A stretch of 45,019 bases of DNA from a virus (taxonomy: Duplodnaviria > Heunggongvirae > Uroviricota > Caudoviricetes): the IMG/VR virus record IMGVR_UViG_2687453529_000004. The stretch is one strand, 5' to 3'. Under the pieces are notes generated by a model. That model saw only the letters and a program-made list of their open reading frames with translations. It made no database searches and was not told the DNA's origin. The position numbers and the translations under genes are program-made. Within the stretch, counting starts at the first letter, position 1. The number at the start of each line of letters is the position of its first letter. Shown in pieces: positions 1-40,613 of this stretch.

Positions 1-750
1 TCAGTCAATTGTTTTGTTTATTCCATCTGTGACGCCGATTATTTTCTCAAAATAATGAGATGGCGTGACACCATAATAATCTTTAAATGCACATATGAAA
101 TATGAAGTACTGTTATAGCCACATTTCTGGGCTACGACATTGATAGAATAAGAGTTTGAAGTTATGAGTTTTTTTGCATACCTCATCCTAGTATCTCTCA
201 ATATTTCAGTAAATGACGTTCCTTCATCCCTTAATCTTTTTTTTATTAAACTTTCACTCGTATAAATCAATTCCGCAATATCTTTTAAATGCCATTGCCG
301 CTCAATATTAAAACTGATTATTCCAGTAATTTTACAGGTAAATGTATTTATATTTGTTAGTATAAATGAATTTACACTTTCGCGTTTTTTGAACATGGCA
401 AGTAAGGATATACATAGTCTTTCTTTTAACCAAAGGGAGTGTGAGTCTGCTATTTTAATCCCTTCAAACAGAGAAAAAACAAGCGATAATGGAGGTTCCT
501 CTTCAGCAATATAGCCATTCTTATCAAGAGTAAATTTGCCAGGCAGCTCATTATTCACGTCGATAAAAAAGGATAAACATGTTTTCTTATCTATATCAAC
601 AATTCTTAGTTTAGAGGGGCATACTGGTAACTCCCTTCTAATTTTGTCGCTTACAATAAACAATGAATTTTTTTTGAACGAGATAACTCTCCTGTTTATA
701 ATTAAATCAAATGATTGACAGATGAAAACTACGGAGCAAACATAATCCAT
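1..750 (-). CDS. appY: AraC/XylS-family transcriptional regulator, AppY-like
   Basis: 249 aa ORF with C-terminal AraC-type HTH signature; sequence recalled as the DLP12 regulator AppY; AT-rich gene and upstream region. Confidence 0.6.
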
Positions 751-1424
751 CTTGCACCTATCATAAAATTAAAACAAGTTGATAGCAGTCAAATAACAAC
801 CAATTAAATACACAATCATAATCAGGATGATGTGCATTTATATTTTTATACACAAAATTATAGTTTGCAAATTTTAATAAATTTCATTTAAGATTAAATT
901 ATTATATGTATATTGTTTTTTATTCTAACGTATTTCAAAGTTACATTTTTCAACGCTTACTATACTTTTTATTAACATAAACTCACTACAACGCACCTGA
1001 AACCTCTTGCTATATATATGTCAACCGTTTGAATTTAAAATAAAAAGAGTATCATTTTTACTTGCATTTCTTATCAAGTCACATTCAACAACAGTAAAAA
1101 ACATTATTAGAACCATTCAATTAACAAAAAACCAACATCCAGCTTGCTTAATTTTTCTTTATTAAACGACATTGAAAATCAATTGATAAAATACATCTAA
1201 ACAACCTTTTGGGGCGCAAAAGCATAACATCAAACAAACAAATAACACACCGAAAAAACTCACAATTAATAACCTATGATATACATACTGTTTATTATGG
1301 TTGAATAAGCCACTCGATATCTGGTGCTACGGAAGTGTCCACACGGTTTAGCAGCACCCGATACTTTTTCCAGGCTTCCAGCAACGAGTTTTCTTCCTCC
1401 GTTGCATATACAGCTCACCTTTTT

Positions 1425-3083: not shown

Positions 3084-5446
3084 TATACGTATTCCTTAAG
3101 CTGCGTATCTGACAATGCTCTGTTCCAGAAACGGAGGTTTTTTATATGACCATTAAGGTGTCGTAATCCTGTCGTCGTTTGCCCCCCGATTCGAATCACG
3201 GCTGCTTCACGAATATATTTCCATACTGTTTTGGTTTCAGTGCTTATATGCTTATTTGCAAATGAGCATGTCATGCCGTCAGCCTTAACCCTGAATCCCA
3301 TAACGAGATCTCTTACTCCGCATGACTCATATACACGCCGGTTAGCCCCGCCTATATCGCAATACGAATAACCATCCTGACTGATAGTTCCAGAAGAACC
3401 AAACCCCATAATAAATGGGCCTCCGGACTGGTGATTTTCTGAATCAATGACACGCGGTGCAGCATTATGAGAAATAAACCAGTTTTTATGGACTTCCACC
3501 ATGAACGTAAAAGGCATGGTATACATATTTTTCATCAGCGGAAATTTACATAAATCTGATGCACGAGTCGCTGGCTCTGTTGTCGTTATGATAAAGGAAG
3601 TTGCACAAGCACCATACTCGAATTGCGGGGTGGTTACTTCTATCCAGTCACCTGTTGCAAAAGCCCCCACTGCTCTGTCGGCTGCAATTTGCAGCTGCGT
3701 ACCAACCATTCCCCATTCTGGCAGACATTTCAGTGTTGCCTGAAAATATATCCATCCACTACCAGGGTCGATTTCAAAGTTTGCTGTTAATAGCTGGGCA
3801 TTACCACCCGTAATTTGTAGTTCATGAGTCTGTAATGACAAATAGGCGTCACAAAGGAAAGTGTATCCTTCCGAGTTATACCGTTCAAAACGGATACGTG
3901 CGCGAACATTGAGATCACTTCTTACCCTGAACGACGCGGTAACATACGGACCTTTACTGTACTGATCATCGCCAGTCACATCTATGCCTTTATTACCAGC
4001 AACTGTGCATATATTTCTCCCTGTTGTCGTTCCTGCTATGTCGCTTCCTACTGTGAAACGTCCATATTTAAACTCAAATTCATCTGTTGATGATGTTACA
4101 GATATACCACCGCTTTTATTCCACGCATCAGGATTAAAACTATTTACGAACATGTTTGTTCGCTGATTCTCTATCAGCAAACCATATTTTTCAAAACGAG
4201 GAGCGTTATTCCCTGCCACGGTAATATGCCCGGACTTATCAATATACGTTGCTGATGAAGCGCGGCTAAATTGGCATATGCCATTAACAGGCATTGTTAT
4301 TTCATCACTGCCGATGGTTATTGTTTTATAGCCCGGGGCATACCCTGTTATCGCTTCCAGAGAATCATTCAAGGGTAGCCAGATATCAGGAAGCGGAGGG
4401 ACTGAAGCAGGATCAGCGGCATCTTCTGCAATCCGGGCTGCATTCTCTGCTCTTGTTGCGGCTGACGTTGCTTCTATCTCGCTGGCTGCTGCTTTTGTTT
4501 CACTCGTCTTTGCGTTAGTTTCACTGGTTTTTGCAGCTTTTTGGCTATTAGCTGCCGCACTTGCAGAACCAGCTGCGGCACTCTCGCTTTGGGCCGCTGC
4601 ATCCTGACTGTTTTTTGCCGCAGTTTCGCTGGCTTTGGCATTCGTTTCGCTGGTCTTCGCTGCCGTCTGGCTGGACTTTGCGTTAGTTTCACTCGTCTTC
4701 GCAGCTTTCTGGCTGTTAGCCGCAGCAGTTGCTGATCCAGCTGCTGAAGTCGCAGAACCGGCTGCTGCGCTCTCGCTTTCAGCTGCTGCAGCCTGGCTAT
4801 TTTTCGCCGCAGTTTCACTGGCTTTGGCATTCGTTTCGCTGGTTTTCGCTGCCGTCTGGCTGGACTTTGCGTTGGTTTCGCTCGTCTTTGCGGCTGTCTC
4901 GCTGTTTTTCGCGTTGGTTTCTGATTTTTTGGCTGCTGTCGCGGAGTTTGCCGATGCAGTCTGCGAGGACGCTGCCGCCTGTGCGCTGTTAGCTGCATTC
5001 GTTTCTGAGGTTTTCGCCGCGTTCTTCGATGATGCCGCTGCAGTTTCGGATTTCTTTGCCACCGCTGCGCTCTGAGAGGCGGCTTCGGCGTTGCGTGCCG
5101 CTTCTTCCACCATTGCCTCAAAACGACGCAATGCCTCCGGCATGACATCATCTTCCGTCATGGCACCGAGAAAATCATTCAGCGTACCTGGTCTGGAACC
5201 TTCATAGACGGTAATGGTTCCGGCATGTGAAGGCGGAAAACCTTCAACCAGCAGGGTGACGCTGTACTGGCCATACTCAACATCCATGCTGTAACGCCCG
5301 GCTTCATCCGGATTTTCAGAGGCCACCGTGTTCACCAGTACCGTGGTGCTGTTACGCTTTGCCTTCAGTTGAATAGTGCAGTTCTGTATTGGTTTTCCCG
5401 CACCATCTTTCAGCACACCTGAGATTTTTACTGCTGCCATATCCAC
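3083..5446 (-). CDS. stf: Side tail fibre protein with internal tandem Ala/Ser/Thr/Lys-rich repeats and a LamG-like C-terminal domain
   Basis: 787 aa ORF immediately downstream of lom; N-terminus resembles lambda Stf; repeats KTSETNAK/AAKNSQ visible in the translation. Confidence 0.8.
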   Translation of the reverse strand: MDMAAVKISGVLKDGAGKPIQNCTIQLKAKRNSTTVLVNTVASENPDEAGRYSMDVEYGQYSVTLLVEGFPPSHAGTITVYEGSRPGTLNDFLGAMTEDDVMPEALRRFEAMVEEAARNAEAASQSAAVAKKSETAAASSKNAAKTSETNAANSAQAAASSQTASANSATAAKKSETNAKNSETAAKTSETNAKSSQTAAKTSETNAKASETAAKNSQAAAAESESAAAGSATSAAGSATAAANSQKAAKTSETNAKSSQTAAKTSETNAKASETAAKNSQDAAAQSESAAAGSASAAANSQKAAKTSETNAKTSETKAAASEIEATSAATRAENAARIAEDAADPASVPPLPDIWLPLNDSLEAITGYAPGYKTITIGSDEITMPVNGICQFSRASSATYIDKSGHITVAGNNAPRFEKYGLLIENQRTNMFVNSFNPDAWNKSGGISVTSSTDEFEFKYGRFTVGSDIAGTTTGRNICTVAGNKGIDVTGDDQYSKGPYVTASFRVRSDLNVRARIRFERYNSEGYTFLCDAYLSLQTHELQITGGNAQLLTANFEIDPGSGWIYFQATLKCLPEWGMVGTQLQIAADRAVGAFATGDWIEVTTPQFEYGACATSFIITTTEPATRASDLCKFPLMKNMYTMPFTFMVEVHKNWFISHNAAPRVIDSENHQSGGPFIMGFGSSGTISQDGYSYCDIGGANRRVYESCGVRDLVMGFRVKADGMTCSFANKHISTETKTVWKYIREAAVIRIGGQTTTGLRHLNGHIKNLRFWNRALSDTQLKEYV
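4470..5090. repeat. Tandem ~200 bp coding repeats inside stf
   Basis: Near-identical DNA blocks (e.g. tgccgcagtttcgctggctttggcattcgtttcgctgg at ~4611 and ~4806); repeated peptides in the forward and shadow frames. Confidence 0.7.
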
Positions 5447-9711: not shown

Positions 9712-10797
9712 TCAGCGACCAATCACCACAACCTGACCACCATCCCCTTCGTCTGCCGTGCTGATCTCCTGAGAAACCACGCGTGACCCCACGCGCATTT
9801 CACCGTACAGAACAGGCAGAACATTGCCCTGGGCAACCATGTTATCCAGTGAGGAGAAATAGGTGTTCTGTTTGCCGTTATCCGTTGTCTGTGTACGGGG
9901 AGTTCTGGCTTTCGGTGCCAGCATCTGCGCCACACCACCGAGCACCATACTGGCACCGAGAGAAAACAGGATGCCGGTCATACCACCGGCCCCAATGGCT
10001 GCCCCCCATGCTGCAAGGGTGGCTCCGGCAGTAAAGAATGATCCGGCAATGGCGGCTGCTCCCAGGACAATCTGGAATACGCCACCTGACTTGGCCCCGG
10101 CGACTCTGGGAACAATATGAATCACAGCGCCATCAGGCAGAGTCTCATGTAACTGCGCCGTTAACCCGGACGTGCTGACGTCCCGCCCGGCAATCCGTAC
10201 CTGATACCAGCCGTCGCAGCCGCAGTAAATTGCGGCGTGATTCGGCACCGATGAACCAAAACAGCACAGCAGCACATCGCCCGGCTGTGCCGCTGACAAC
10301 GGCACCTGATACAGCCCCGTCGCCTCCAGATTATCCAGATAGAGATTCTGGCCGTTACGCCACCAGTCATCCTCACGATGAAAGTCCGGCATCTCAATCC
10401 CCGCCAGATGATAAGCATCCCGGAACAGTGTGTAACAGTCCGTCACACCGTGCTCAAAGCGCCGCCCGGTGAGATGCGGCACACAGCGGAACTTATGAAT
10501 CGTCCCCCGGCAGACCAGCCACCACGGCAAATCACTCTGCACCTGCAGCCGCCGGTCGGCCTCACTCAGCCAGGGCAGACCACCGGGGTGGCTGTGGACC
10601 AGCGCCACAATCTCACCCTGCATTTCTGCCTGCAGCCAGTCTTCCGGCGACATACGGAAATACGCCTCCGGCTCACCGGAGATATTCACGCAGGGGAAAT
10701 ATCTTTCCCCCTCCGGCGTGCTTACCACGAAGCCGCACGACTCCGCTGGCGCACATCGCCGGGCGTGCGCCAGAATCGCTGATTCTGTCTGTGTCAT
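9712..10797 (-). CDS. Tail tip assembly proteins K and I fused in one frame
   Basis: 361 aa ORF: N-terminus is gpK (JAMM HSHP motif, NlpC/P60-like Cys), C-terminus is the gpI end (...TADEGDGGQVVVIGR); lambda has separate overlapping K (199 aa) and I (223 aa). Confidence 0.75.
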   Translation of the reverse strand: MTQTESAILAHARRCAPAESCGFVVSTPEGERYFPCVNISGEPEAYFRMSPEDWLQAEMQGEIVALVHSHPGGLPWLSEADRRLQVQSDLPWWLVCRGTIHKFRCVPHLTGRRFEHGVTDCYTLFRDAYHLAGIEMPDFHREDDWWRNGQNLYLDNLEATGLYQVPLSAAQPGDVLLCCFGSSVPNHAAIYCGCDGWYQVRIAGRDVSTSGLTAQLHETLPDGAVIHIVPRVAGAKSGGVFQIVLGAAAIAGSFFTAGATLAAWGAAIGAGGMTGILFSLGASMVLGGVAQMLAPKARTPRTQTTDNGKQNTYFSSLDNMVAQGNVLPVLYGEMRVGSRVVSQEISTADEGDGGQVVVIGR

Positions 10798-11501: not shown

Positions 11502-11830
11502 CAGTTCACCACCTGTTCAAACTCTGCGCTGAACTCAACACGCAGCATACTGACCCGCGACGACCATTTTGCGCAGGTCACCTTTATCTGCCGCCACTCA
11601 TAAGGCGGCGTCCACAGAAAGGCTTTCCAGCCCCCGTGCTCTTCCAGAAACGACTCCAGTACCGTGGCCTCCTCACGGGGGACAGAAAGCGTCACGCTGT
11701 ACGTTTTCAGGTTGGCATTCAGCCCGGCAGGCGCTCGCTGGGAACAGCCATCACCAAAGCGCACCTTTCTTACAGAAGGGGCCGAAGCCACATCCATACC
11801 GGGTTTCACTTTCCAGCGGAAGGTTTTCAT
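11501..11830 (-). CDS. M: Minor tail protein M
   Basis: 109 aa, matches recalled lambda gpM. Confidence 0.9.
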   Translation of the reverse strand: MKTFRWKVKPGMDVASAPSVRKVRFGDGCSQRAPAGLNANLKTYSVTLSVPREEATVLESFLEEHGGWKAFLWTPPYEWRQIKVTCAKWSSRVSMLRVEFSAEFEQVVN

Positions 11831-14389
11831 CGTCCACCTCCGGAGAACAGACCACCATCACGCATCTGTGTCTGAATTTCATCACGGGCACCCTTGCGGG
11901 CCATGTCATACACCGCCTTCAGAGCAGCCGGACCTATCTGCCCGTTCGTGCCGTCGTTGTTAATCACCACATGGTTATTCTGCTCAAACGTCCCGGACGC
12001 CTGCGACCGGCTGTCTGCCATGCTGCCCGGTGTACCGACATAACCGCCGGTGGCATAGCCGCGCATCAGCCGGTAAAGATTCCCCACGCCAATCCGGCTG
12101 GTTGCCTCCTTCGTGAAGACAAACTCACCACGGTGAACAATCCCCGCTGGCTCATATTTGCCGCCGGTTCCCGTAAATCCTCCGGTTGCAAAATGGAATT
12201 TCGCCGCAGCGGCCTGAATGGCTGTACCGCCTGACGCGGATGCGCCGCCACCAACAGCCCCGCCAATGGCGCTGCCGATACTCCCGACAATCCCCACCAT
12301 TGCCTGCTTAAGCAGAATTTCTGTCATCATGGACAGCACGGAACGGGTGAAGCTGCGCCAGTTCTGCTCACTGCCGGTCAGCATCGCCGCCATATTCTGT
12401 GCAATACCATCAAAGGTCTGCGTGGCTGCACTTTTTACCTGCGACATACTGTCCGTGGCGCTCTCTTCCCACTCACTCCAGCCGGACTTCAGGCCTGCCA
12501 TCCAGCTCCCGCGAAGCTGGTCTTCAGCCGCCCAGGTCTTTTTCTGCTCTGACATGACGTTATTCAGCGCCAGCGGATTATCGCCATACTGTTCCTTCAG
12601 GCGCTGTTCCGTGGCTTCCCGTTCTGCCTGCCGGTCAGTCAGCCCCCGGCTTTTCGCATCAATGGCGGCCCGTTTTGCCCGTTGCTGCTGTGCGAATTTA
12701 TCCGCCTGCTGCGCCAGCGCGTTCAGGCGCTCCTGATACGTAACCTTGTCGCCAAGTGCAGCCAGCTGGCGTTTGTACTCCAGCGTCTCATCTTTATGCG
12801 CCAGCAGGGATTTCTCCTGTGCGGACAGCTGGCGACGTTGTGCCGCCTCCTCCAGTACCGCGAACTGACTTTCTGCCTTCCACAAATCCCGGCGCTGCTG
12901 GCTGATTTTCTCATTCGCTCCGGCATGCTTCTCCAGCGTCCGGAGTTCTGCCTGAAGCGTCAGCAGGGCAGCATGAGCACTGTCTTCCTGACGATCGCCC
13001 GCAGACACTTTCACGCCGGACTGTTTCGGCTTTTTCAGCGTCGCTTCATAATCCTTTTTCGCCGCCGCCATCAGCGTGTTGTAATCTGCCTGCAGGATTT
13101 TCCCGTCTTTCAGTGCCTTGTTCAGTTCTTCCTGACGGGCGGTATATTTCTCCAGCGGCGTCTGCAGCCGTTCGTAAGCCTTCTGCGCCTCTTCGGTATA
13201 TTTCAGCCGTGACGCTTCGGTATCGCTCTGCTGCTGCGCATTTTTGTCCTGTTGAGTCTGCTGCTCAGCCTTCTTTCGGGCGGCTTCAAGCGCAAGACGG
13301 GCCTTTTCACGATCATCCCAGTAACGCGCCCGCGCTTCATCGTTAACAAAATAATCATCCTTGCGCAGATTCCAGATGTCGTCTGCTTTCTTAAACGCAG
13401 CCTCTGCCTTAATCAGCATCTCCTGCGCGGTATCAGGACGACCAATATCCAGCACCGCATCCCACATGGATTTGAATGCCCGCGCAGTCCTGTCTGCCCA
13501 GGTCTCCAGCGTGCCCATGTTCTCTTTCAGGCGGCGGGTCTGGTCATCAAACCCTTTCGTTGCGGCCTCGTTCGCCGCCTGCAATGCCCCGGCTTCATCG
13601 CCGGAACGCTGCAACTGAGCAACATACGCAATCTGCTCCGCCGTCACGTTATGGAACTGGCGTGCCATCGCCGTCAGCCCCGACGTCGGGTCTGTGGTCA
13701 GCTTCCCGAAGGCTTCAGCGACCTTGTCCACCTCCACGCCGGATGCAGAGGAGAAACGCGCCACACTCTGGCTGATGGACGCAATCTGAGCCTCACCGCT
13801 TACCCCCGCCTTAACCAGTGCGCTGAGTGACTCGCTGGTCTGGTTAAACGTCAGCCCTGCCGCCTGCCCGGCTCTGGACAGGACCAGCATACGATCTGCC
13901 GTCAGACCCGACTGATGACCGGAAAGGACCAGCGTTTTGTTGAAATCGGACAGGGTTGAGTTGCCCTGATACCAGGCATACGCCAGCGCACCGGTCGCCA
14001 CCGCCAGCGAGGTGGCCCCCACCATCGGCAGGGTGATCGCACCGGCAAGCCCCCTGAACATGGGGATCATCCCGCCGAAGGAGTCCTTCACCTGCCCCCC
14101 CCTGTTGCAGCAGGATCAGCCACGGACTTTGCCCGCCTGCAAGCTGCGTGGCCACGTCAGTGAACTGCGCAGGCAGCATACGCATGGCAGCTTTATACTG
14201 CCCGACGGAAATCCCCGCTTTCTGTGCAGCCAGCGCCTGTCGGCTCAGCGACTGTTCAACGACTGCCGCTGTTTTTTTCGCATCACTTTCCGTACCGGAA
14301 AAATGACGCCTGACTCTGGCCATCTGCTCGTCAAATCTGGCCGCATCCAGACTCAAATCAACGACCAGATCGCCTACCGGTTCAGCCAT
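11827..14389 (-). pseudogene. H: Tail tape measure gene H, split by a +1 frameshift in a G8 run
   Basis: N-terminal 99 aa (from 14389) and C-terminal 754 aa (to 11827) are in different frames and together give 853 aa, the lambda gpH length; junction at the C8/G8 homopolymer 14096-14103. Confidence 0.8.
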
Positions 14390-14816
14390 ACCGGACTCCT
14401 CCTGCGATCCCTTCTGATACTGTCATCAGCATTGCGTCATCCTCCGTCATGTCCGCCACATCCGGGGAAGTAGGGATAACTTCATTCCCGTCCGGGCCAA
14501 AGCGGACACCTCCGGCAAGCCCTGCCGCTTTCTGCATCAGCACATCATCTTCAGGCTCTTCGTCAGCCTCGCGCCGGTTCAGCAGACTGAAATCCAGCGG
14601 ATGCATATCCGGATCGCTGAAAAACAGGCTGAGCACGGTGTACGTCAGCCCGGAAAAGTGCATATCCAGCAGAACATCATGAAAATAATGGGTACTGTAA
14701 AAGCGGTGCCAGTCGGCATACTCCGTGGATGACATCCCGGCAAGCATGGCACGCCAGTCGGGTCGCCCCATCTCACGCGCCAGTTTCAGGGCAAAACTCA
14801 GCTCACCGTCGAACAC
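14382..14816 (-). CDS. T: Tail assembly protein T frame, expressed as G-T by programmed -1 frameshift
   Basis: 144-codon ORF overlapping the 3' end of G in the -1 frame; matches recalled lambda gpT. Confidence 0.8.
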   Translation of the reverse strand: MFDGELSFALKLAREMGRPDWRAMLAGMSSTEYADWHRFYSTHYFHDVLLDMHFSGLTYTVLSLFFSDPDMHPLDFSLLNRREADEEPEDDVLMQKAAGLAGGVRFGPDGNEVIPTSPDVADMTEDDAMLMTVSEGIAGGVRYG

Positions 14817-15220
14817 TTTCCCGCAGAAACAGGTTCTGCGGGCCCGGCGTCCTCTGCCTGTTCAGGGGCATTATTCACCACAAACTCATACATACCAGAC
14901 AGCCGGTACACCACGTTTTCAGCATGAGAAATTGCCTCTGTGGGCCAGGTGGTAAGCACTTCCTGCTCAATCTGTTTAACGGCTTCATTCATGGAAGGCT
15001 GCTTTGTCTTCTGCGGATGGTTATGCCACAGGGACATCGCCACCAGAAACGCGCCGGTTCTGATGGCGTCTTCCACAGTAAACTTCCGGTTGCTGTCTGA
15101 CTCCGCCTGTTCTGCCTGCCGTTTCATCAGGGCGAGATGCTCAATACGCTGCAGGGCTGACAGTTCAGAAAGCGTGACGGTCACACCGTTATGTTCAAAT
15201 GATTCGGTTTTCAGGAACAT
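14798..15220 (-). CDS. G: Tail assembly chaperone G
   Basis: 140 aa, matches recalled lambda gpG. Confidence 0.9.
   Translation of the reverse strand: MFLKTESFEHNGVTVTLSELSALQRIEHLALMKRQAEQAESDSNRKFTVEDAIRTGAFLVAMSLWHNHPQKTKQPSMNEAVKQIEQEVLTTWPTEAISHAENVVYRLSGMYEFVVNNAPEQAEDAGPAEPVSAGKCSTVS
14816..14822 (-). promoter_or_regulatory. G-T programmed -1 ribosomal frameshift slippery heptamer GGGAAAG
   Basis: Minus-strand GGGAAAG located 5 codons before the G stop, at the G/T overlap. Confidence 0.7.

Positions 15221-20493: not shown

Positions 20494-20513
<20 letters not shown>
19194..20513 (-). CDS. C: Capsid assembly protease C
   Basis: 439 aa from a GTG start (VTAELRNLPHIASMAF); matches recalled lambda gpC. 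Confidence 0.85.
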
Positions 20514-24193
<3,680 letters not shown>

Positions 24194-30598: not shown

Positions 30599-30991
30599 TT
30601 ATTTCGAACAATCAGCATCCATCTCCAATCGGAGATCCAACACCATCAGCATACCCTCCACTACGCCCTCAGCTTTCTGAAGCATCCTGCCAACCCAACA
30701 ATCAGATCGCCCATGCTTACGTGCAAGCGCCATAAAAGTCATGCCGCCGACATAATAGTCCACCAATAAATCATGCAAATCGCTGTTGTTCTTTTTCAGA
30801 CGGGCCATGCACCCGCAAATGATCATCGCGTCATCGTCACAACATTGTGGGCGAGATTTTACTTTTGAAGTAATTAATCCCTTAAAACCGGCGGCAATGG
30901 ACGACCAGGTCACATCTTCATGATTATTAGCCGCCCACGCTCCCCAACGCTCAAGAACCATCTGAATATCACGCATCAACTTACTCCACAA
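30599..30991 (-). CDS. quuD: Late-gene antiterminator Q (QuuD-like)
   Basis: ~125-130 aa with Cys-rich zinc-binding segment; located between rusA and the lysis region; start codon uncertain. Confidence 0.7.
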
Positions 30992-31198
30992 AAATCAGAC
31001 CAGAACGCCAATTACAAGCAAAAATCAACGAAACAGTATTAGTTGATTGTTATCTCTGACTTCATACTCCTGCTCCTGTCAGGGTTTTGGCGTAATTCTT
31101 CAGTATTCGGTAATCGGTCAAAACAGAACCGGGGAAACGATATAAGCGCAGACGCCCCCAGCGGTGGCGAAGACGTTCTGCCATATAAAACTCAAACA

Positions 31199-31561
31199 TC
31201 ATTCATTCCCCATTTCGGTGATGGTCAGTTCCAGCCTCCCACCTTTGGTAACAGGCATCTTCACAACGCGGTAATCAACGACCTGAGCATCATCCAGCCA
31301 GAAACCTGCTTTAGTGAGTGCGTCAAAAGCGGCTTTTTGCAGATTATCCAGGTCACGGCGACGGCGATCCGGCATGTGGCACTCAATGCGGATTTTCACA
31401 GGCATAGCCAGGCCGATATCCAGCATTGCGTTTTTAATGATTCGGGCGACGTTATCGCGGTATGCCTGCCCCTCTGCGCTGACGTGCGTGCGCCCGCGAT
31501 TATGGCGGTAATAGCGATTATTGCTCGGAGGCCAGGGTAATGTGATGCTGTAGGTATTCAC
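31199..31561 (-). CDS. rusA: Holliday junction resolvase RusA
   Basis: 120 aa, matches recalled RusA. Confidence 0.85.
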
Positions 31562-31848
31562 GCCTTAATAACCCCCTCTTTCAGCCAGATAACCTGTGTT
31601 CTCGCCATACCTTCCAGCGCGCATTCTTTTGCATATGCAGCATCGACAAAATGTGTGCGGCGGTCGATTTCGTCGTGGCAGGCAGAACATGCAATGGTGG
31701 CAATCAGGTCTGGCGGTTTGGTACCGGTGCCGCACAATCCAGTCAGCCGGATATGTGCCAGTACAGACGTTTCAGGGTTGCCATTACATACGCCAGGGAT
31801 TCTTACCTGGCATTCCCGACTACGCGCTGCTTTTCTCAAATCAGCCAT
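31558..31848 (-). CDS. ybcO: YbcO-like protein (DUF1364, putative nuclease)
   Basis: 96 aa from [13 protein letters not shown], Cys-rich; DLP12 ybcO-like. Confidence 0.6.
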
Positions 31849-32011
31849 GATTCCTCCTTGCTGCCAGTCGCAACCATTTTTTATCAACCAGGCTGGCGGT
31901 ATATCCGAGCAGTGTTGGTATTTCGGAAGGCTTCAGCTCCGGTTTACGCTTACGACGATCTGGTACTCTGTAGATGTGTCCGTTCATGACACGAATAAGC
32001 GGTGTAGCCAT
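31841..32011 (-). CDS. ninE: NinE protein
   Basis: Hand-translated 56 aa [35 protein letters not shown]... (below the ORF-track cutoff); overlaps ybcN stop and ybcO start. Confidence 0.7.
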   Translation of the reverse strand: MATPLIRVMNGHIYRVPDRRKRKPELKPSEIPTLLGYTASLVDKKWLRLAARRNHG

Positions 32012-32466
32012 TACGCCTCCTGCTTGTCGCGGAGCAGCTGGAACTCGCAGCTCTGCGGAATAGTCAGGTGGCAGCCAATATTCACCGCCCAGGCTTCAAC
32101 CTTACACAGGAAGACATACATCTCTCCGGTATCAAGATCGGAGGTATGGCGTAACGACTGGATAGTGGTGATATCACCGGTTACGACATCAACCAGGTCT
32201 TTGGTTTCATAACCGAGATATGTGTGTTTGAGAGCATCTTTTACCCAAGCTGGAGTAGCGAACGTTTTACCCCTGCTGATGAGGTATTCACTGATTTCGC
32301 TGTACCACATGTGGCTGAGTGCATTCTGGGAAAGACTGCGTTTCTCACGCCACGGTTTAAGCACCATGCGAAAGCATTTGCCCTCCTCCAGATAAGGCTG
32401 GATCTGCCGACCGATAGCGGTGAAGTTACCGCGATGTAATTTGATGCCATCTTGTGGGAGATTCAC
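32011..32466 (-). CDS. ybcN: NinB/YbcN-like recombination protein
   Basis: 151 aa, DLP12 ybcN-like. Confidence 0.7.
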
Positions 32467-32653
32467 GCTTCACCTCCGCAGAGGTCAAACGCTGGATACA
32501 ATATATCGCAGGTGCATTTCTGCATCTGTGGAGGGAGAAGAGAGTTTGGATTGTGTGTGCGCATAAACGTCCCCGTTTAGCGCAGAAGTCACCGGAGTTG
32601 TTCAGGCTCCGATGACATGATTATGGCGAGTTGATTATCGCAAATCAAAGGTT

Positions 32654-33010
32654 TTAATTGTGCTTTATTCCTTCAAGCGTTGCCTTCATACCAACCAAAG
32701 AAATGTTTAGCTCTCCAACTTTCTCAGGGCTATATAATTCAGAATGAAGCCAATATTCTGATTTATCTAAACATCTTTTAGCCAGCTCTCGATCAAAGTC
32801 TACGACTTGGGAAGACGCTTCATACCAAAGTCTATAAAGTTTTTCTTCTTCGTTTGGGTTATTAGGCTCACCACGTTTTAATTTTTCAGTATATAAAATT
32901 GTTGAATAAATCGCAGGAGTTAATCCAGTGATTGCCCTCTGCCGCAGATCGGATTTGTTTGTTATCCACCCCAACAGACGATCTCCCATCCATGTGATAA
33001 TTGTATCCAT
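32654..33010 (-). CDS. Hypothetical protein (118 aa)
   Basis: ORF with GAAGGG RBS-like sequence 8 nt upstream; no family recognised. Confidence 0.4.
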   Translation of the reverse strand: MDTIITWMGDRLLGWITNKSDLRQRAITGLTPAIYSTILYTEKLKRGEPNNPNEEEKLYRLWYEASSQVVDFDRELAKRCLDKSEYWLHSELYSPEKVGELNISLVGMKATLEGIKHN

Positions 33011-33471
33011 GCTTTAGCCCTTCTTAGTAAATAGTGTGTAGGGCGACTGAAGGACCGAGTTTATGCTTTTTCGCATTGCTTTCAGTTAGTACACCGGTAT
33101 CGCACCGGAAACAATCCTACGGCAAATTGGTTGTCTGACCTCTCGGTTTTTCGTGCATTAACCGATACCCACTACAGTCTCGGCGAAAGCTGCACACCCC
33201 CAGGGTGTACTGGTAGCACTCGGCACAGCCTAGCACGCCACTTTCTTCTCACTATCCAGTCTAATTTTATCCCCTAGTCAGACACTCAGATGTAGTGCTC
33301 CGCAGCGGCATGCGGGGGAATACAAAAACTCGGACAAAATTGGGCCCTCCTTTTTGAATCACTCGCGGGGATGTAGTTATTAATACATGGAAAAAGATCT
33401 GTTTTCAAATCCAACATTATATGGTTTCAATACCACGGGGTGGCTATGTGTTTCTCATTGTTAATTGGAAT
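33011..33471 (-). other. ORF-free, hairpin-rich segment (candidate ncRNA, leader or decayed gene)
   Basis: No ORF of 60 aa or more in any frame; GC-rich inverted repeats; minus-strand promoter-like TTGAAA-16-TATTAA at ~33381-33408. Confidence 0.3.
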
Positions 33472-33795
33472 CTACTGTAATCGATCCGAACGTAAATGCG
33501 GCAAAACTCGACTCCACTTATCATCCTGCCACGGCCGGAATTTTACATGTGCCGTTTCTCTGGCAAGGATTGCCTGTGCCTTATTGAGTATCTGGGGATA
33601 TTCTTGCTCGATAGAAGTGAAGCGACCAGCTTCACGATGCTCCGCAACCTGAAGAAGAGGAGTAACGTTCTGGTAGGTAATTAACATCACATTCCCTGCT
33701 CGCCATAACCAGGCGAGTGTGCAAAGTTCGTTATCAGTGAATTGTTTTGTGATTGGGTATTGTTGAACTGCTAGAACGAGAACGCCAGCATCCAT
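33472..33795 (-). CDS. Hypothetical protein (107 aa)
   Basis: ORF only; no family recognised. Confidence 0.4.
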   Translation of the reverse strand: MDAGVLVLAVQQYPITKQFTDNELCTLAWLWRAGNVMLITYQNVTPLLQVAEHREAGRFTSIEQEYPQILNKAQAILARETAHVKFRPWQDDKWSRVLPHLRSDRLQ

Positions 33796-33906
33796 TGGCA
33801 GTCTCTATAGTAAAACCATAGCTCAGGACGCTTCGTTCAGGATAGATAATTTTATTGTACTTACCTAACTTTCTTACTATAGCACGGTTGAAAAAGTGAT
33901 TATTAC

Positions 33907-35433
33907 TCAAAAATAAACCTCACCATCAACCATATATTTGAGAGTACTTATCGCCTGCTGGGCGGATATTGTTTTCATTAAAGGATAGTGTTTAAAAACA
34001 ATGCCATTCATAAAATAGATATCACAGGTTTTATTATCTGTATTGATTATGATTTTTTCGAATGTTTTATAGGCAAGTGTACGACATAGCTCTCGCCCAT
34101 TTTTACTGGTTAAGTCAATAGCATGAAAATCACCAAGTGAACTCACCGCTTTACTCTTCAAAGTTTTTAATGATACAGAAGCCCTTCGTAATTCCTTATC
34201 TAATACTCTGATTTTTTCTGCTATAGCGGTAACTTCAGGCGCAACAGATAATGCAGCAATTAAATTATTAATTTTCATCTGGAGCTCAATAATTTTCAAC
34301 TCTAAAGTTTCATTAGCATCTTTCTTGTTTTCAACTGGTTGGATTTTACTACAATTAAAAAGCAACTCATTAATGATATTATAATCAACCAAATCTCTCT
34401 TTATTGATGGCCTGTCACATCGATGCAGTCTTCTCATCGGACAAACATAATAGCCATGCAAACTTCCAGATACCGCATGAACAATCATGGTATTACCACA
34501 AGCCTCGCACTTCATAACTGTTCGAAGTAGATTTATCAACATAGGATTTTTGCTACTATTGCTAATACCAAAAGGTGCCAACCGAATTTCCTGTACAGCG
34601 TAAAACAAATCATCTGATATGACTCTGGGATAATAGCCAGCGATTTCACTTATTCCTTTACCTCTTGCACGATATGAAGGTACGCATATACCTATCAGAG
34701 CTTTATTCGCTAATAATTTTTCAATTACAGAAGGTCCCCATGCACTTTCTTTTCCTGAGAAATTCTTTACAGCATGATCATTTAAATACTTGGCTATTGC
34801 ATTCAATGAGCGCCTTTCCATCCTGAGTTTAAAAATTAGCTCAATAGTTTTCACCCTGTCGGGGTCTGGAACAAAAGCCGTTCTTTTGTCATCTAAGGAG
34901 AGCCATCTCGGACAAGACGCCGTCATAATCGTACCTGATTCCAGTGCATCCTGCCGTTTTTTCTTCCATGATAATTTAACCCGACTTGACTTTATCTCGC
35001 TTTCTTCATTTGCCCTTTGTGCTATAAGTATGGCTTTTATTAATGAATATGGCTCATTCAAAGAGTCAATATTATAGACTGTATTGTCGCAAAGAGTTAT
35101 AACATCAATACCGTGATTCAAAATCAATTTCAGACGTTCAATCGCTTCACCGACTTTTTCTCTTGAAAGTCTGTCCAGACTTTCAACTAACAATGTAGTT
35201 CCTGGCAATATATAACCATGCTCTATAGCATCTAAAAATTCCGAAAAAGCTCCTGATTGTGCATGCTTTCCTTTGAATGCACTTAATCCTAAATCTTCAT
35301 ATGTTATGGTATCAAGATAATAATCACTATTTACCTTTAACCATTCAGCAATAAGTCTTCTCTGTCGGTTTAATGAGTCGCCAGACATCTGACCTGGTGA
35401 TGAAAATCGCATATATGCTATGGCTTTTTTCAT
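33907..35433 (-). CDS. ybcK: Large serine recombinase (YbcK-like)
   Basis: 508 aa; N-terminal resolvase catalytic domain (YMRFSSPGQ... Ser nucleophile), C-terminal recombinase/zinc-ribbon/coiled-coil; matches recalled DLP12 YbcK. Confidence 0.85.
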   Translation of the reverse strand: MKKAIAYMRFSSPGQMSGDSLNRQRRLIAEWLKVNSDYYLDTITYEDLGLSAFKGKHAQSGAFSEFLDAIEHGYILPGTTLLVESLDRLSREKVGEAIERLKLILNHGIDVITLCDNTVYNIDSLNEPYSLIKAILIAQRANEESEIKSSRVKLSWKKKRQDALESGTIMTASCPRWLSLDDKRTAFVPDPDRVKTIELIFKLRMERRSLNAIAKYLNDHAVKNFSGKESAWGPSVIEKLLANKALIGICVPSYRARGKGISEIAGYYPRVISDDLFYAVQEIRLAPFGISNSSKNPMLINLLRTVMKCEACGNTMIVHAVSGSLHGYYVCPMRRLHRCDRPSIKRDLVDYNIINELLFNCSKIQPVENKKDANETLELKIIELQMKINNLIAALSVAPEVTAIAEKIRVLDKELRRASVSLKTLKSKAVSSLGDFHAIDLTSKNGRELCRTLAYKTFEKIIINTDNKTCDIYFMNGIVFKHYPLMKTISAQQAISTLKYMVDGEVYF

Positions 35434-35620
35434 GGTGACACCTGCTAACGTATGCTTTTATAAACCTTAGTGGTGGGATATAATTTTTGTTTAATTTTTA
35501 TTTAAAAAGACAATTAAGGTCACATTATCTTGAATATACAACAATAATCGTATTGCAATTTTCTTACGCCATAATCTTGAAAGCACAAAAGAATACATAA
35601 AAAAATAAAGACATTAACAA

Positions 35621-35665
35621 AAAGCATAAAACGAGGCTCATATAAATATAAGAGCCTCCATATTT
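35621..35665 (-). terminator. Rho-independent terminator downstream of emrE
   Basis: Hairpin GAGGCTC-N12-GAGCCTC followed by a U-rich run on the minus strand. Confidence 0.4.
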
Positions 35666-35689
35666 TAGTCGTTTAGAAACAAATTATTT

Positions 35690-36022
35690 TTAATGTGGTG
35701 TGCTTCGTGACAATAAATTAATAACCAACACACCGGCACAAATCAACATCATGCCTATAATGGCTGGCAGGTCCAGCCGTTGGCCGAAAAGTCCCCATGA
35801 CAGTAAGCTAATCAGGACAATACCGACTCCTGACCAGATAGCATAAGCAATCCCTGTAGGAATATAAGCCAGCGTCTGAGCTAATAACCAGAATGATGCA
35901 CAATAACAAATAATTGTACCAACAGATGGCCATAACCGTGTAAAACCTTCTGAAAACTTCATTAAGGTTGTACCAATGACCTCTGCAAGTATTGCACCAC
36001 CAAGATAAATATAAGGGTTCAT
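35690..36022 (-). CDS. emrE: Small multidrug resistance efflux transporter EmrE
   Basis: 110 aa from MNPYIYLGGAILAEVIGTT; four TM segments, conserved Glu14; matches recalled EmrE. Confidence 0.85.
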   Translation of the reverse strand: MNPYIYLGGAILAEVIGTTLMKFSEGFTRLWPSVGTIICYCASFWLLAQTLAYIPTGIAYAIWSGVGIVLISLLSWGLFGQRLDLPAIIGMMLICAGVLVINLLSRSTPH

Positions 36023-36089
36023 AGAATATTCTTTCCTGTTCAAACTGGAGAGAATTGTACTACAGTTTGAACTCAACTCACCTGTTTCA

Positions 36090-36392
36090 TCATTGTGTAC
36101 CCATTGATGTTCTTTTATATACCCTCAATACCCGTTTCATCGCGGCACTCTGGCGACACTCCTTAAAAATCAGATTCGTGCTCACCTTTCCTTCCCGTTC
36201 TTCTCTGGTAGCAAACCGGTAATACACCGTTCGCCAGACCTTACCTTCGATAGCCAGAAGACCTGCCCGTGCCATTTTAGCCGCAGCCTGATTTATGCTG
36301 GTTACCGTTGCGCCTGTTACCGCGGCAACGTCCTGCGCACAGAATTTCTTATGAGTCCCCAGGTAATGAATAATTGCCTCTTTGCCCGTCAT
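36090..36392 (-). CDS. ren: Ren protein
   Basis: 100 aa, MTGKEAIIHYLGTH...; matches recalled lambda Ren. Confidence 0.8.
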   Translation of the reverse strand: MTGKEAIIHYLGTHKKFCAQDVAAVTGATVTSINQAAAKMARAGLLAIEGKVWRTVYYRFATREEREGKVSTNLIFKECRQSAAMKRVLRVYKRTSMGTQ

Positions 36393-37090
36393 ACCCTTGC
36401 TCCTTTCAGCCCAAACTTAGCTTTGATTTCTGCGATCTTCGCCAGAGCCTGTGCACGATTTAGAGGTCTACCGCCCATGACAGGAAGTTGTTTTACTGGT
36501 TCAGGTATAGCCTCACCACGGTTAATTCGTGCGGTCATACAGGACAGTTCATCGGCAGCCTTGCGCCGTAATTCCGCGTCAGTCAACGCATTGGCCCGCA
36601 TGTTCTGATACAGGTTGGTAACCAGCCAGTAGTGCGCGTTTGATTTCCACGGATAAGACTCTGCATCCGGATACAGCCCGCGCTTCCGGCAATACTCGTA
36701 AACCATATCAACCAGCTCGCTGGCGTTTGGCAGCCCGGCGGTAACGGATGCTTCTTCCCGGCACCAGGCGACAAACTGCCCGGGTGATGGCAGGAATGGT
36801 CGATTCTGCCGACGGGCTACGCGCATTCCAGCGTTAACCTGTTCCATTGTGGTGATCCCGTTTTCCCGAAAAGCCAGCACCCACTGGCGGCGGATTTCGT
36901 TCAGTTCATTCTGGTCACGGTTAGCCAGGCTCGCCGGGAAAGTTGCCAGTAACTGGCTGAACACACCGTTGATGATCTGCGCTACCTGCTGTACCTGCGG
37001 CTTTTCGTCGTACTGTTCCGGCATGTTGTTGGCGATCCGACGCATCTGCTCACGGTCAAAGTTAACCATCTGTGCGGCGATGTTTTTCAT
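36389..37090 (-). CDS. P: Replication protein P (helicase loader)
   Basis: 233 aa, matches recalled lambda gpP. Confidence 0.9.
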   Translation of the reverse strand: MKNIAAQMVNFDREQMRRIANNMPEQYDEKPQVQQVAQIINGVFSQLLATFPASLANRDQNELNEIRRQWVLAFRENGITTMEQVNAGMRVARRQNRPFLPSPGQFVAWCREEASVTAGLPNASELVDMVYEYCRKRGLYPDAESYPWKSNAHYWLVTNLYQNMRANALTDAELRRKAADELSCMTARINRGEAIPEPVKQLPVMGGRPLNRAQALAKIAEIKAKFGLKGARV

Positions 37091-38016
37091 AAATCCACCC
37101 CGTAAATCCAGTCAGTGTTTGTCAGGTCGAGTTTTGGTTTGCTGGCTATCATGCCTGCCTGTTGCTTGTTACGGTTGATTTCGAGTTGGGTCCACTTGTC
37201 GCGGAGTTTGGCCGGACTTAGCACGTTACCGGACCAGAAGTTGTCCTGGCATGCCCAGCGGAAAAGCACGCACATGTCGCGGTGGTTACGTCCGTCACGT
37301 TCACGCATCAGGCGGATATCGTTAGCCCACCCTGCAAAATTCGGTTTTCTGGCTGATGGTGCGATGGTCTTCACCATGTCAAACATCCACTCTGCGGCGG
37401 TCAGGTCTTCTGCTGTCCCCCACTTGCTGCCGCTCTGAATTGCAGCATCTGGTTTCACCACAGGAAGATCGTTTTCTGGTTGGTCAGAGGATTCGCCAGA
37501 ATTCTCGGACGAAAAAGGTTTTATATTGTCTTTTGTTAGTTTGTCTTTTGTGTTTACCTGATTCGGGTAAACGCCTTTACCTGATTTGGGTAAACTTTTC
37601 TTACCTGATTCAGGTAAATTTACCTCTTTCAGGTAAACTTTATTTTTCTTACCTGATTCGGGTAATGTTGACCATTCACTGACCACATTATTAATACCGA
37701 TATTCCGCCCGCTCTGAATCAAAATCCCACGCTTTACCAGAACACTTTTTGCAGCAGAACACTTGTGCGGTAATATCCCGGTCAATCCGGACAGTTGCTC
37801 GTTGCTCACCCAATCCAGTTTTTTATTAAAGCCATATGTTTTGCGCATGACAGCCAGGAAGACCAGAAGCTGGTGCTGTGTTAATCCGGCCAGCATCACA
37901 GCTTCCAGCAACTCATTTGCAATGCGCGTATAACCATCATCGAGATCTGCCACGCGCGGCTCCTTTTGTGCCGCATCCGGCACTGGAAAATTGAATATCT
38001 CAGCAGTGTTTGCCAT
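37087..38016 (-). CDS. O: Replication initiator protein O
   Basis: Start MANTAEIFNF with GGAGG RBS; N-terminal DNA-binding domain differs from lambda O; iterons inside the gene; C-terminal region lambda-O-like. Confidence 0.85.
   Translation of the reverse strand: MANTAEIFNFPVPDAAQKEPRVADLDDGYTRIANELLEAVMLAGLTQHQLLVFLAVMRKTYGFNKKLDWVSNEQLSGLTGILPHKCSAAKSVLVKRGILIQSGRNIGINNVVSEWSTLPESGKKNKVYLKEVNLPESGKKSLPKSGKGVYPNQVNTKDKLTKDNIKPFSSENSGESSDQPENDLPVVKPDAAIQSGSKWGTAEDLTAAEWMFDMVKTIAPSARKPNFAGWANDIRLMRERDGRNHRDMCVLFRWACQDNFWSGNVLSPAKLRDKWTQLEINRNKQQAGMIASKPKLDLTNTDWIYGVDL
37553..37669. repeat. Replication origin iterons within O (five ~19 bp TTACCTGATTCGGGTAA-like repeats)
   Basis: Five direct repeats with ~22 bp periodicity, each an internal palindrome; adjacent AT-rich stretch at ~37500-37545. 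Confidence 0.75.
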
Positions 38017-38102
38017 AATTCCTCCCGCAATGAGTGTGTTACGATTTGCACCTGAAAGTCGGTTCTGTTCCAGCAGACCGGCTTTCGCCATTTCTGAACC
38101 TG

Positions 38103-38642
38103 TCATATCGCCCCCAGCATGGTAGTAACCATCGCCATCAATGGACCAGCCAGATCTGGGTCCACACGAAACATCGATACAATACCTTCACTAATTTCCT
38201 TCAGTTTCTGGTGGCGTGGTGCGTTGAGAATGACAGCCTGTTTTGCCTCACTGAGTTCCTTTTCCATTTCAGCCAACCTGGCCATGAAGCTATCCTGCTC
38301 AACCAGGTAACCGCGATATTCCAGCGGTAGTACCGCCAGAATTGCCGGGGTCAGTTCACGCACGTTATTTCGGTATTTTTCAGAATCGAATTTGTTATCG
38401 AGGAAGCGGAACAGCTTCTGGCGTGCACGGCTGACATCATCAGGGAAATCGATGGTGCCGCCGCCCTGCTCCCGATACTCATTCACAATGAGTGTGGCAA
38501 CGACATCCTGATTATCTACAGCCGACCAGGCGCGGACGGCATCACGGATTTTTTCGTGGCCTGGCACCTGTTTTGTTTGAGAACGATTTATCACCGCAGT
38601 CGGGCTAAATCCGCTAGTCTGTTGGTATGGAAGTGGTTGCAT
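38103..38642 (-). CDS. CII-like / YdaT-like early regulatory protein
   Basis: 179 aa ORF in the cII position immediately after cro; family assignment tentative. Confidence 0.45.
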   Translation of the reverse strand: MQPLPYQQTSGFSPTAVINRSQTKQVPGHEKIRDAVRAWSAVDNQDVVATLIVNEYREQGGGTIDFPDDVSRARQKLFRFLDNKFDSEKYRNNVRELTPAILAVLPLEYRGYLVEQDSFMARLAEMEKELSEAKQAVILNAPRHQKLKEISEGIVSMFRVDPDLAGPLMAMVTTMLGAI

Positions 38643-38711
38643 AATTGACTCCTTTAGTTTGAATTGACTGTTAAGTTGATTGCTTATTGTTAAAGAGCGT
38701 GAAATGGAAAT

Positions 38712-38942
38712 TTAAGCTGCGTTCTTTTCGGTGTGTGGAAACAACTTCGGAAGATCCGGGCGAATCTGGTATGCCTTCACTACTCCACCAGTAGCCGTAA
38801 CAATGCTGCCGACATGTTCAGGGGATACCTTTGCTTTGTTGTGAAGCCACTTATAGACGGCCTGCTGTGAAACTTCGCAAGCAGCGCCCAGTTTCTTTTG
38901 TGAACCAACGATATTGATCGCTGTTTTGATAGCTGGGTTCAT
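38712..38942 (-). CDS. cro: Cro-like repressor
   Basis: 76 aa HTH protein (QKKLGAACEVSQQAVYKW) divergent from cI, GGAGG RBS. Confidence 0.7.
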   Translation of the reverse strand: MNPAIKTAINIVGSQKKLGAACEVSQQAVYKWLHNKAKVSPEHVGSIVTATGGVVKAYQIRPDLPKLFPHTEKNAA

Positions 38943-39046
38943 AACAACCTCCGTGGTTAATTTGAATCAAGATTAAAACTATGGTTGTTTTTAGTCAACA
39001 ACCATTTTCGTTTGATGGAATAAAACCTTGGTTGTACATTTGGACT
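38943..39046. promoter_or_regulatory. oR / pR / pRM divergent promoter-operator region
   Basis: Minus-strand TTGACT-17-TAATCT (pR) upstream of cro; + strand TTGATG-17-TACATT near-leaderless before cI; several CAAC...GTTG palindromes. Confidence 0.6.
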
Positions 39047-39736
39047 ATGAAAACAACACTCTCAGAAAGACTTAAAGAAGCCAGATTAGCGCGAGGCCTT
39101 ACACAAAAGGCGCTTGGGGATTTGGTCGGGGTTAGCCAGGCTGCTATTCAGAAAATCGAAACAGGGAAAGCTAATCAAACAACTAAAATCGTGGAGATCG
39201 CGAACGCTTTGGGTGTGCGCGCAGAATGGTTATCTTCTGGCGTTGGAAATATGTCAGACAGTACAGTGCAACCAATACAATCAACTGTCAGCCATTCCAA
39301 ATACTTCAAGATTGACGTTCTTGATATAGAAGTCAGTGCTGGGCCGGGAGTCATCAACCGTGAGTTTGTAGAAGTTCTACGCTCGGTTGAGTACTCGTTT
39401 GACGATGCTCGTCACATGTTCGATGGTAGGAAGGCGGAAAATATCCGCATCATTAACGTGCGTGGTGACAGCATGTCAGGAACGATCGAACCAGGTGATC
39501 TGCTGTTCGTTGATATCACAGTTAAATCTTTCGACGGTGATGGTATCTATGCGTTTCTGTACGACGACACAGCCCATGTAAAGCGCCTGCAAATGATGAA
39601 GGATAAGCTGCTGGTCATCTCTGATAACAAAAGCTACTCACCGTGGGACCCGATCGAGAAAGACGAGATGAACCGGGTGTTCATCTTCGGTAAGGTTATT
39701 GGGAGCATGCCGCAGACATATAGGAAGCATGGGTAG
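39047..39736 (+). CDS. cI: CI-type prophage repressor (HTH plus S24 LexA-like peptidase domain)
   Basis: 229 aa from MKTTLSERLKEAR; HTH QKALGDLVGVSQAAIQKIE; C-terminal GDSM Ser and downstream Lys motifs. Confidence 0.85.
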   Translation: MKTTLSERLKEARLARGLTQKALGDLVGVSQAAIQKIETGKANQTTKIVEIANALGVRAEWLSSGVGNMSDSTVQPIQSTVSHSKYFKIDVLDIEVSAGPGVINREFVEVLRSVEYSFDDARHMFDGRKAENIRIINVRGDSMSGTIEPGDLLFVDITVKSFDGDGIYAFLYDDTAHVKRLQMMKDKLLVISDNKSYSPWDPIEKDEMNRVFIFGKVIGSMPQTYRKHG

Positions 39737-39857
39737 TACCAATTAAAAATTATCAACTGGGCATTGTGCTCATTCAGTAAAGAACTAATTCCTATCTTTG
39801 CTCTAGGTAGTAATATTAAGCCACCGCAATAATATCTTTACCTAACGGCGTAAGAAT

Positions 39858-39885
39858 CCCGGTCACCGTGCCGGGTTTTCTTTTG
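39858..39885 (+). terminator. Rho-independent terminator after cI
   Basis: CCCGG-N8-CCGGG hairpin followed by TTTTCTTTT. Confidence 0.5.
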
Positions 39886-40004
39886 CCCTCCCCTCATCAC
39901 ACACACCGTTAAAAAAACCACCATAACCTCGCTTCAGTTATCGCTATGCGATTCAAGTCACAAAATAAATCCATCCTAAATACAACCAGTTATATCTAAA
40001 ACAA

Positions 40005-40085
40005 CCAATAAAACAACTTTTGTTGTTGACGATAAAACAACTATAGTTTTAAATAAGTTCATCGCAACAACACAACGATACGGCA
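40005..40085 (+). promoter_or_regulatory. pL-like promoter with operator palindromes (oL)
   Basis: TTGACG-17-TTAAAT on the + strand; palindromes CAACTTTTGTTG and AACTATAGTT overlap it. Confidence 0.5.
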
Positions 40086-40330
40086 ACTACCTGATTCACC
40101 GTTGCGATGACCGCTTAGATCCGCAGTTTGAATTTCAGCAGGCTTCGGGGAGTGCGAGGGGTGAAACGGACGCGTGAACGTCGGTGTGACCAGCTGAAAT
40201 TAACTCAACATTTCATACCTCAGTCGCTTCAACGAGGCGGCTTAGTTATGACAACCGGCGGCCATCCACCGCCTGAATATGCGCAGAAGTCTCTATATGT
40301 TCAGCAGCCCAGCTTACGGGCGGAGTTTTT

Positions 40331-40537
40331 ATGGTTCATCAACATTACGGAACACAGACCGTTAATCGCGGCGCGGTCATGCCAGGAATGCTGGTCAAAC
40401 ACAAAGATGGTACCTGGACTGCATCAGCTAATTTACGCGGACGGCTTTATCTGCATCGCGGCATCGAGCGCACTTATACCAGTGATTTGCTCGTGGAAGT
40501 TTTTCTCGACGGACGCGGTAACGGCCTGAATCACTAA
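40331..40537 (+). CDS. Hypothetical protein (68 aa) between pL and gam
   Basis: ORF only; ends exactly where lambda-like gam leader sequence begins. Confidence 0.3.
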   Translation: MVHQHYGTQTVNRGAVMPGMLVKHKDGTWTASANLRGRLYLHRGIERTYTSDLLVEVFLDGRGNGLNH

Positions 40538-40613
40538 CCCCCCTTTCCTGTTTTCCTAATCAGCCTGGCATTTCGCGGGCGATATTTTCACAGCCATTTT
40601 CAGGAGTTCAGCC

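Follow-up and report, generated by a model that had tools for sequence, protein, structure and literature searches.

The window, by which we mean the whole 45,019-nucleotide stretch of DNA analysed here, is a nearly complete lambdoid prophage that runs along the minus strand at the argU/DLP12 attachment site of E. coli. The features that bear on the analysis are collected in Table 1. Gene H is situated between the G/GT chaperone genes and M-L-K-I-J, as seen both from the order of open reading frames (ORFs) in the window and from the annotation of near-identical relatives, and the T/H and H/M overlaps as well as the order V-G-T-H-M-L-K-I-J are those of lambda. The ATGA overlap couples the translation of M to the end of H.

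Table 1. Position of gene H, its two reading frames and neighbouring features in the window
Feature	Coordinates	Strand	Remarks
appY	1-750		
K-I fusion ORF, 361 aa	9712..10797	-	private in-frame deletion at about 10217-10219
M, 109 aa	11501..11830	-	ATG overlaps H stop (ATGA)
H, lambda-type tail tape-measure gene, disrupted	11827..14389 (2563 bp)	-	pseudogene as written; lambda H identity, Pfam
3' ORF, 754 codons (H residues 100-853)	11827..14091	-	opens at GTG of Val100, 3 nt past G8
5' ORF, 181 aa	13844..14389	-	H residues 1-98, then 83 out-of-frame residues and TAA; ORF list
G8 homopolymer, site of +1 base	14095..14102 (14102 down to 14095)	- (C8 on +)	direct reading
T, tail assembly	14382-14816	-	H start overlapped, as in lambda; called 'phage tail assembly protein T' in relatives
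Lambda -1 slippery heptamer GGGAAAG	14816-14822	-	intact
G, tail assembly chaperone	14798-15220	-	ORF list; called 'phage tail assembly chaperone G' in relatives
Portal gene (lambda B type), split 135 + 398 aa	20494..22094	-	missing C near 21690/21691
intD, integrase	43856-45019		

A reading made from the sequence alone, referred to below as the sequence-only reading, had taken the disrupted gene to be the lambda tape-measure gene H. The comparison with lambda H that it suggested bears this out. Minus-strand positions 11827-14389 are 99.1% identical to lambda H at the nucleotide level over the full 2563 bp, and removal of one G from the run yields a single 853-codon ORF that encodes the same amino acid as lambda gpH at 847 of 853 positions. 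Relative to the lambda entry J02459, where the gene is listed as 'H (tail component;853)', the restored H differs at 6 amino acids and 21 nucleotides. The domain content agrees with this assignment. Pfam family TMP_2 (PF06791) is broken exactly at the G run, profile positions 2-46 being matched by residues 54-98 of the 5' ORF (66.8 bits) and positions 48-207 by residues 1-157 of the 3' ORF (145.6 bits), and Tape_meas_lam_C (PF09718) is found further downstream in the 3' ORF (75.6 bits); all three scores are above the gathering score. Lambda gpH likewise has the TMP_2 plus Tape_meas_lam_C architecture, and its length of 853 aa is that of the window copy after one G has been removed. Hence the stretch is confirmed as a member of the lambda-type tape-measure gpH family which, as written, is a pseudogene.

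Direct reading of the minus strand around the run gives ...CTGCTGCAACA GGGGGGGG CAGGTGAAGGAC..., also written ...CTGCTGCAACA-GGGGGGGG-CAGGTGAAGGACTCC.... The 5' ORF begins with MAEPVGDLVV..., and the H frame holds as far as ...LILLQQGG (residue 98). There is no uninterrupted ORF for the whole ruler in the window, since the frame breaks at the eight G and leaves ORFs of 181 and 754 aa. Between the run and the GTG of Val100 comes the Gln99 codon CAG, which belongs to the downstream frame; the earlier sum of 99 + 754 = 853 aa, the length of lambda gpH, is therefore correct, as the ORF list and the removal of one G both demonstrate. In relatives the same tract is seven G long and codes caG GGG GGG, i.e. 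Gln-Gly-Gly (Gln96-Gly97-Gly98). Direct reading, lambda and the close relatives accordingly agree with the earlier statement that eight G stand where Gln-Gly-Gly-Gln needs seven. The run of eight C on the plus strand had been placed at 14096-14103; its length stands, while its coordinates were off by one (Table 1). All of the 40 best matches to the 2563-base H among complete E. coli genomes span 2562 bases, and the split is no product of chance. The window copy differs from lambda in the tract, which has seven G in lambda itself and eight in the window copy with its ORF split 98/99 + 754, and in the surroundings: lambda is a viable phage, whereas the H of the window belongs to an integrated prophage with a portal defect and a K-I deletion.

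The portal lesion was found to be shared. The same portal allele occurs in 10 complete genomes, in one of which (RS571) the gene is annotated as 'phage portal protein, frameshifted', and the 398-aa portal product is present in 664 blocks of public assemblies. Each of the 10 complete genomes with the portal lesion carries a 2562-bp H with a tract of seven G. The portal lesion is thus real and inherited, marks a clone that has been sequenced many times, and is older than the lesion in H. As it is inherited and all 10 carriers have seven G, DNA packaging had already been lost to the prophage by the time H changed.

For the differences that are private to the window copy, the window was compared base by base with FDAARGOS_497 and RS571. 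It is nearly identical to both, and the differences amount to the extra G, the missing portal C, an A6/A7 run, a net loss of 228 bp at about 10219 and a handful of SNPs. Inside H no indel other than the extra G separates the window from the clone-mates, and the same holds between 10.2 and 31.7 kb. At the K-I deletion, 231 bp between two GCGACGGC repeats are gone and a 3-bp filler stands in their place. The junction was not found as a single piece in any of the listed E. coli genomes, and we therefore rejected the deletion as a lineage marker common to relatives; the K-I fusion protein likewise has no record in public assemblies. Two further private changes, V474M in TerL (at 22800) and V415A in Stf (at 4203), are non-synonymous and both are transitions; neither TerL M474 nor Stf A415 (sought in its 787- and 785-aa versions) has a record. 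The A6 at 1096-1101, in place of A7, lies in non-coding DNA, and the allele occurs in only 4 unrelated records of about 830, including the laboratory strain NEB10-beta. The Bet R203 variant is not private, being present in 614 assembly blocks, and one contig with Bet R203 (L114, GCA_053036605.1) matches the window with 100% identity across positions 30916-45019 (14.1 kb). Of the homopolymers of at least six bases, 61 of 63 agree with relatives, and the two exceptions are the two private runs. The 181-aa 5' product has no record in public assemblies.

We then asked how often the tract departs from seven G, counting only records with identical flanks around it (the exact query for eight G was a 34-mer). 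Among records of complete E. coli genomes, 1,140 had seven G, one had eight (strain 1585m1) and one had six (an O15:H18 ST69 strain). The IMG/VR stretches gave 96 with seven G and none with eight, and eight G was likewise absent from the clone-mates, the species-representative genomes and the metagenome contigs. The exact 754-aa 3' product was present in six other public contigs, with eight G in one (Logan DRR314311, L104) and six G in five. In 1585m1 (NZ_CP086391, LM401_RS11740) the change is the same step from seven to eight G, annotated by PGAP as 'phage tail tape measure protein, frameshifted', but the H allele differs from that of the window, with 98.6% identity over the first 490 nt. DRR314311 has the same step and an identical 754-aa product and is otherwise free of indels relative to the window; its portal gene, unlike that of the window, is intact, and it carries a SNP at TerL codon 559, where the called terminase product stops after 558 aa. 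This copy seems to be decaying independently. The eight-G tracts of 1585m1 and DRR314311 are events independent of that in the window. Among the other off-length assemblies, a draft with six G (L105) matches the window everywhere except at the run, 13E0767 has eight G and, of the 9 genes shown, 5 that are annotated as frameshifted, and L102 combines six G with about 40 other indel positions. The length of the tract thus changes recurrently but rarely, by real mutation and by error both.

The sequence-only reading had left a choice between a genuine inactivating slip and a homopolymer sequencing artefact, and on the comparisons made here these two remain the only well-supported readings. We consider the chances evenly balanced that this is an ordinary homopolymer +1 frameshift in lambda H, with the extra G genuinely present in an already-dead, decaying prophage. 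The remainder of the assembly speaks for this reading. It is clean elsewhere, with zero differences from L114 over the shared 14.1 kb, and the private K-I deletion with its filler is a complex change that is not of the homopolymer-error type. With it and with TerL V474M and Stf V415A, the copy in the window has a private branch that is real. Moreover, off-length tracts also occur in otherwise clean independent assemblies, with eight G in L104 and six in L105. With the portal gene of the clone already lost to an inherited 1-bp deletion, nothing would have selected against a change in H, and a slip there would be selectively neutral. That the H lesion is neutral in this sense and one more in a decaying, non-inducible prophage, with the extra G residing in the DNA rather than in the assembly only, may by our estimate equally well prove right or wrong.

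Against a genuine slip stands the nature of the site. The run is the longest G:C homopolymer and the only G:C run of at least seven bases in the 45-kb window, and whatever the sequencing platform, this is where errors are likeliest. According to the artefact reading, to which we assign a probability somewhat short of even, the DNA has seven G and an intact H, the consensus miscounted this longest G:C run, and the A6/A7 difference is a second error of the same kind. Long-read-only, 454 and Ion Torrent data typically contain such homopolymer miscounts. The second private discrepancy is indeed a homopolymer in non-coding DNA, and its allele, scattered sporadically over the four unrelated assemblies, looks like error. 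Eight G is found in 0 of 10 clone-mates, and noisy public assemblies are off-length at this very site (13E0767 with eight G, L102 with six). With a single complete-genome record for each off-length allele against 1,140 with seven G, two rare events within 45 kb suggest a common technical cause. In mutation accumulation of wild-type E. coli, the ratio of indels to substitutions is roughly 1:10; the private branch has two homopolymer indels versus two SNPs, which is far above this ratio, suggests error and was counted against a genuine slip. A mismatch-repair-deficient isolate would also fit the two transitions and the two homopolymer changes of +/-1. What counts against the artefact reading is the lack of general homopolymer noise: the 14.1 kb shared with L114 are identical, there is no other indel relative to the clone-mates over 21 kb, the other private changes (the complex deletion with filler and the two substitutions) are not error-like, and off-length tracts also turn up in the clean assemblies L104 and L105. 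A generally noisy assembly is not supported as an explanation, with only two homopolymer discrepancies in 45 kb versus dozens in 13E0767, L102 and L113.

We also considered that the frameshift is tolerated or bypassed, be it by RNA polymerase slippage, by a +1 slip of tRNA-Gly, by reversion from eight to seven G at a high rate, or by an internal GTG start giving a working 754-aa fragment. A conserved recoding signal was ruled out. Diverged H genes keep the peptide Gln-Gln-Gly-Gly-Gln but vary the Gly codons, which are GGG GGG in lambda and VT1-Sakai, GGT GGT in 1H12 and PhiR70_1, and GGC GGT in Stx2a phages and N15; at the nucleotide level, the H homologs do not share a slippery tract. Since the diverged homologs interrupt the run with synonymous codons, it is an accident of codon choice in the lambda allele and not a recoding signal. 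Phages 1H12 and PhiR70_1, in which H is given as two CDSs, were examined as viable phages that might tolerate a frameshift at the G run and were rejected, as their indels lie elsewhere (at H nt ~200 and ~255, respectively) and they have no G run.

Some points favour a bypass. The geometry permits perfect re-pairing of tRNA-Gly in the +1 direction on GGG GGG G, which would give the wild-type Gln-Gly-Gly-Gln-Val, and tracts of six, seven and eight G all occur across independent assemblies. The G run also pairs with the 3' end of 16S rRNA at about -10.8 kcal/mol and lies 3-6 nt upstream of the GTG, in the manner of a Shine-Dalgarno sequence; however, this pairing is equal in the wild-type seven-G tract. 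Recoding able to 'correct' indels is a recognised phenomenon, which gives such a bypass a precedent (PMC5009743), and beyond such general background on recoding we found no literature on homopolymer frameshifts in tape-measure genes. The variable Gly codons of the homologs nevertheless show that the run is not conserved. Efficient transcriptional slippage in E. coli is not known below runs of about nine A or T, and the A-site codon GCA that follows the slip site is not known as a slow one. Furthermore, the portal gene of the same operon is also frameshifted, so that restored H would not give virions. The counts do not show a two-frame state as the norm in relatives, nor frequent polymorphism of the tract among close ones: all 10 clone-mates have seven G, and the off-length alleles, though independently recurrent, amount to about 0.1% each, with no sign of a balanced polymorphism. 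Some leakiness or internal initiation may occur, but no observation speaks for it, and we regard a tolerated or bypassed frameshift as very improbable. The same rarity of six and eight G argues against a contingency switch, and we give hardly any credence to the view that lambda-type H has in its seven-G tract a hypermutable or slippery off-on switch, with the eight-G copy as a reversible or leaky 'pseudo-pseudogene', or to its milder variant, a mismatch-repair-deficient mutator isolate. Were the switch real, its route would be a change in length between six, seven and eight G, or slippage of RNA polymerase or a +1 slip of the ribosome on GGG GGG G.

If the extra G is genuine, its simplest origin would be slipped-strand mispairing during replication at the G7:C7 tract, adding one G:C pair. 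Translation from the H start would then shift frame after residue 98 and yield a 181-aa product of 98 native and 83 nonsense residues, while the remaining 754 codons, including those for Tape_meas_lam_C, would not be read from that start and full-length gpH would not be made. M would no longer be coupled to the termination of H. In addition, the loss of full-length gpH is expected to leave the prophage with neither tail initiator nor tail, a prediction based on what is established for gpH, its role as ruler and as initiator component bound by gpG/gpGT (PMC5009743).

Homopolymer frameshifts in structural genes of prophages are already known as a type of event. One parallel in a tail gene is the stf gene of laboratory lambda PaPa, in which Hendrix and Duda reportedly described in 1992 a single-base frameshift relative to Ur-lambda. 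There too a lambda tail gene is lost to a frameshift of 1 bp, but stf is dispensable, whereas H is essential for tail assembly. DLP12 of K-12 occupies the same attachment site (argU, flanked by intD and appY-ompT) and exhibits a stepwise build-up of lesions; the prophage in the window is far more complete than DLP12.

Beyond annotation, the significance of the extra G is small. Should it be an artefact, it would point to a homopolymer error in need of polishing, probably together with the A6 run at 1096-1101. The recurrence of six and eight G in public assemblies makes the seven-G tract of lambda-type H a useful sentinel for homopolymer accuracy in E. coli. If the extra G is genuine, the annotation of H should read frameshifted pseudogene, following the PGAP entry for the same change in 1585m1, and the change would be one more step of decay in a cryptic lambdoid prophage that was already unable to make virions.

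In the window sequence, the loss of one C (CC to C) divides the portal gene into two ORFs of 135 and 398 amino acids which are joined by an ATGA overlap. This frameshift allele is common to ten complete E. coli genomes and is indexed in 664 blocks of public assemblies. The portal lesion is thus a marker of the clone, and it is the primary lesion by which this prophage was inactivated.

Coordinates of the sequence features in the window
Feature	Position	Strand	Remarks
A6 run in the intergenic stretch from appY to the prophage end	1096-1101	+	A7 in relatives
K-I fusion ORF, in-frame, private	9712-10797	-	junction about 10217-10219
Portal gene, split	20494-22094	-	break near 21687-21691
TerL V474M	22800		private substitution, transition, non-synonymous
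Stf V415A	4203		private substitution, transition, non-synonymous

Split copies of the tape-measure gene H were also found elsewhere. Four comparison sequences (L103, L105, L106 and L107) carry G6 alleles at the equivalent of window positions 14089-14102. In these copies the 5' ORF comprises 99 amino acids and ends in a TGA that shares bases with the GTG opening the 754-amino-acid ORF (GTGA), a stop-start arrangement which could allow translational coupling of both H fragments. In addition, H is annotated as two CDSs in the deposited genomes of phages 1H12 (L116, LR595850) and PhiR70_1 (L117, PV340577). There, the split is due to single-base indels at H nucleotides about 200 and about 255, sites without a G run. 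These indels are either sequencing errors in the deposited genomes or tolerated lesions.

Further changes are private to the window copy. Tail gene K, encoding a C40 peptidase, is fused in-frame to tail gene I by a deletion in which two GCGACGGC repeats flank the 231 bp lost and a 3-bp filler at the junction adds a Cys codon. The deletion costs K its final ~51 and I its initial ~24 amino acids, and the fusion was absent from all other genomes and assemblies searched. Public assemblies have no record of either protein variant, TerL V474M or Stf V415A. The private changes, five in all, fall within 1-22.8 kb and none lies in 22.8-45 kb.

Secondary BLAST alignments revealed that the stf-like side tail fibre gene contains tandem 168-bp segments (4550-4717 and 4739-4906) which are 87% identical. 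From the annotation of near-identical relatives, the prophage would carry non-phage cargo at about 27.6-36 kb (positions 9940-18278 of L002, one such relative). This cargo, annotated between Q and the lysis cassette, comprises emrE, the ybcK recombinase, a lipocalin gene, a YbgA-family gene and an AraC-type HTH gene. In these relatives, ylcJ and a zapA-like gene are likewise annotated as small frameshifted pseudogenes.

Where the window has A6, A7 is present in the clone-mates and in about 825 other E. coli records, and the A6 allele was seen in only four unrelated records, NEB10-beta among them. The A6 run is the second private homopolymer change of the window, and as such it is relevant to the question of artefact versus mutator.
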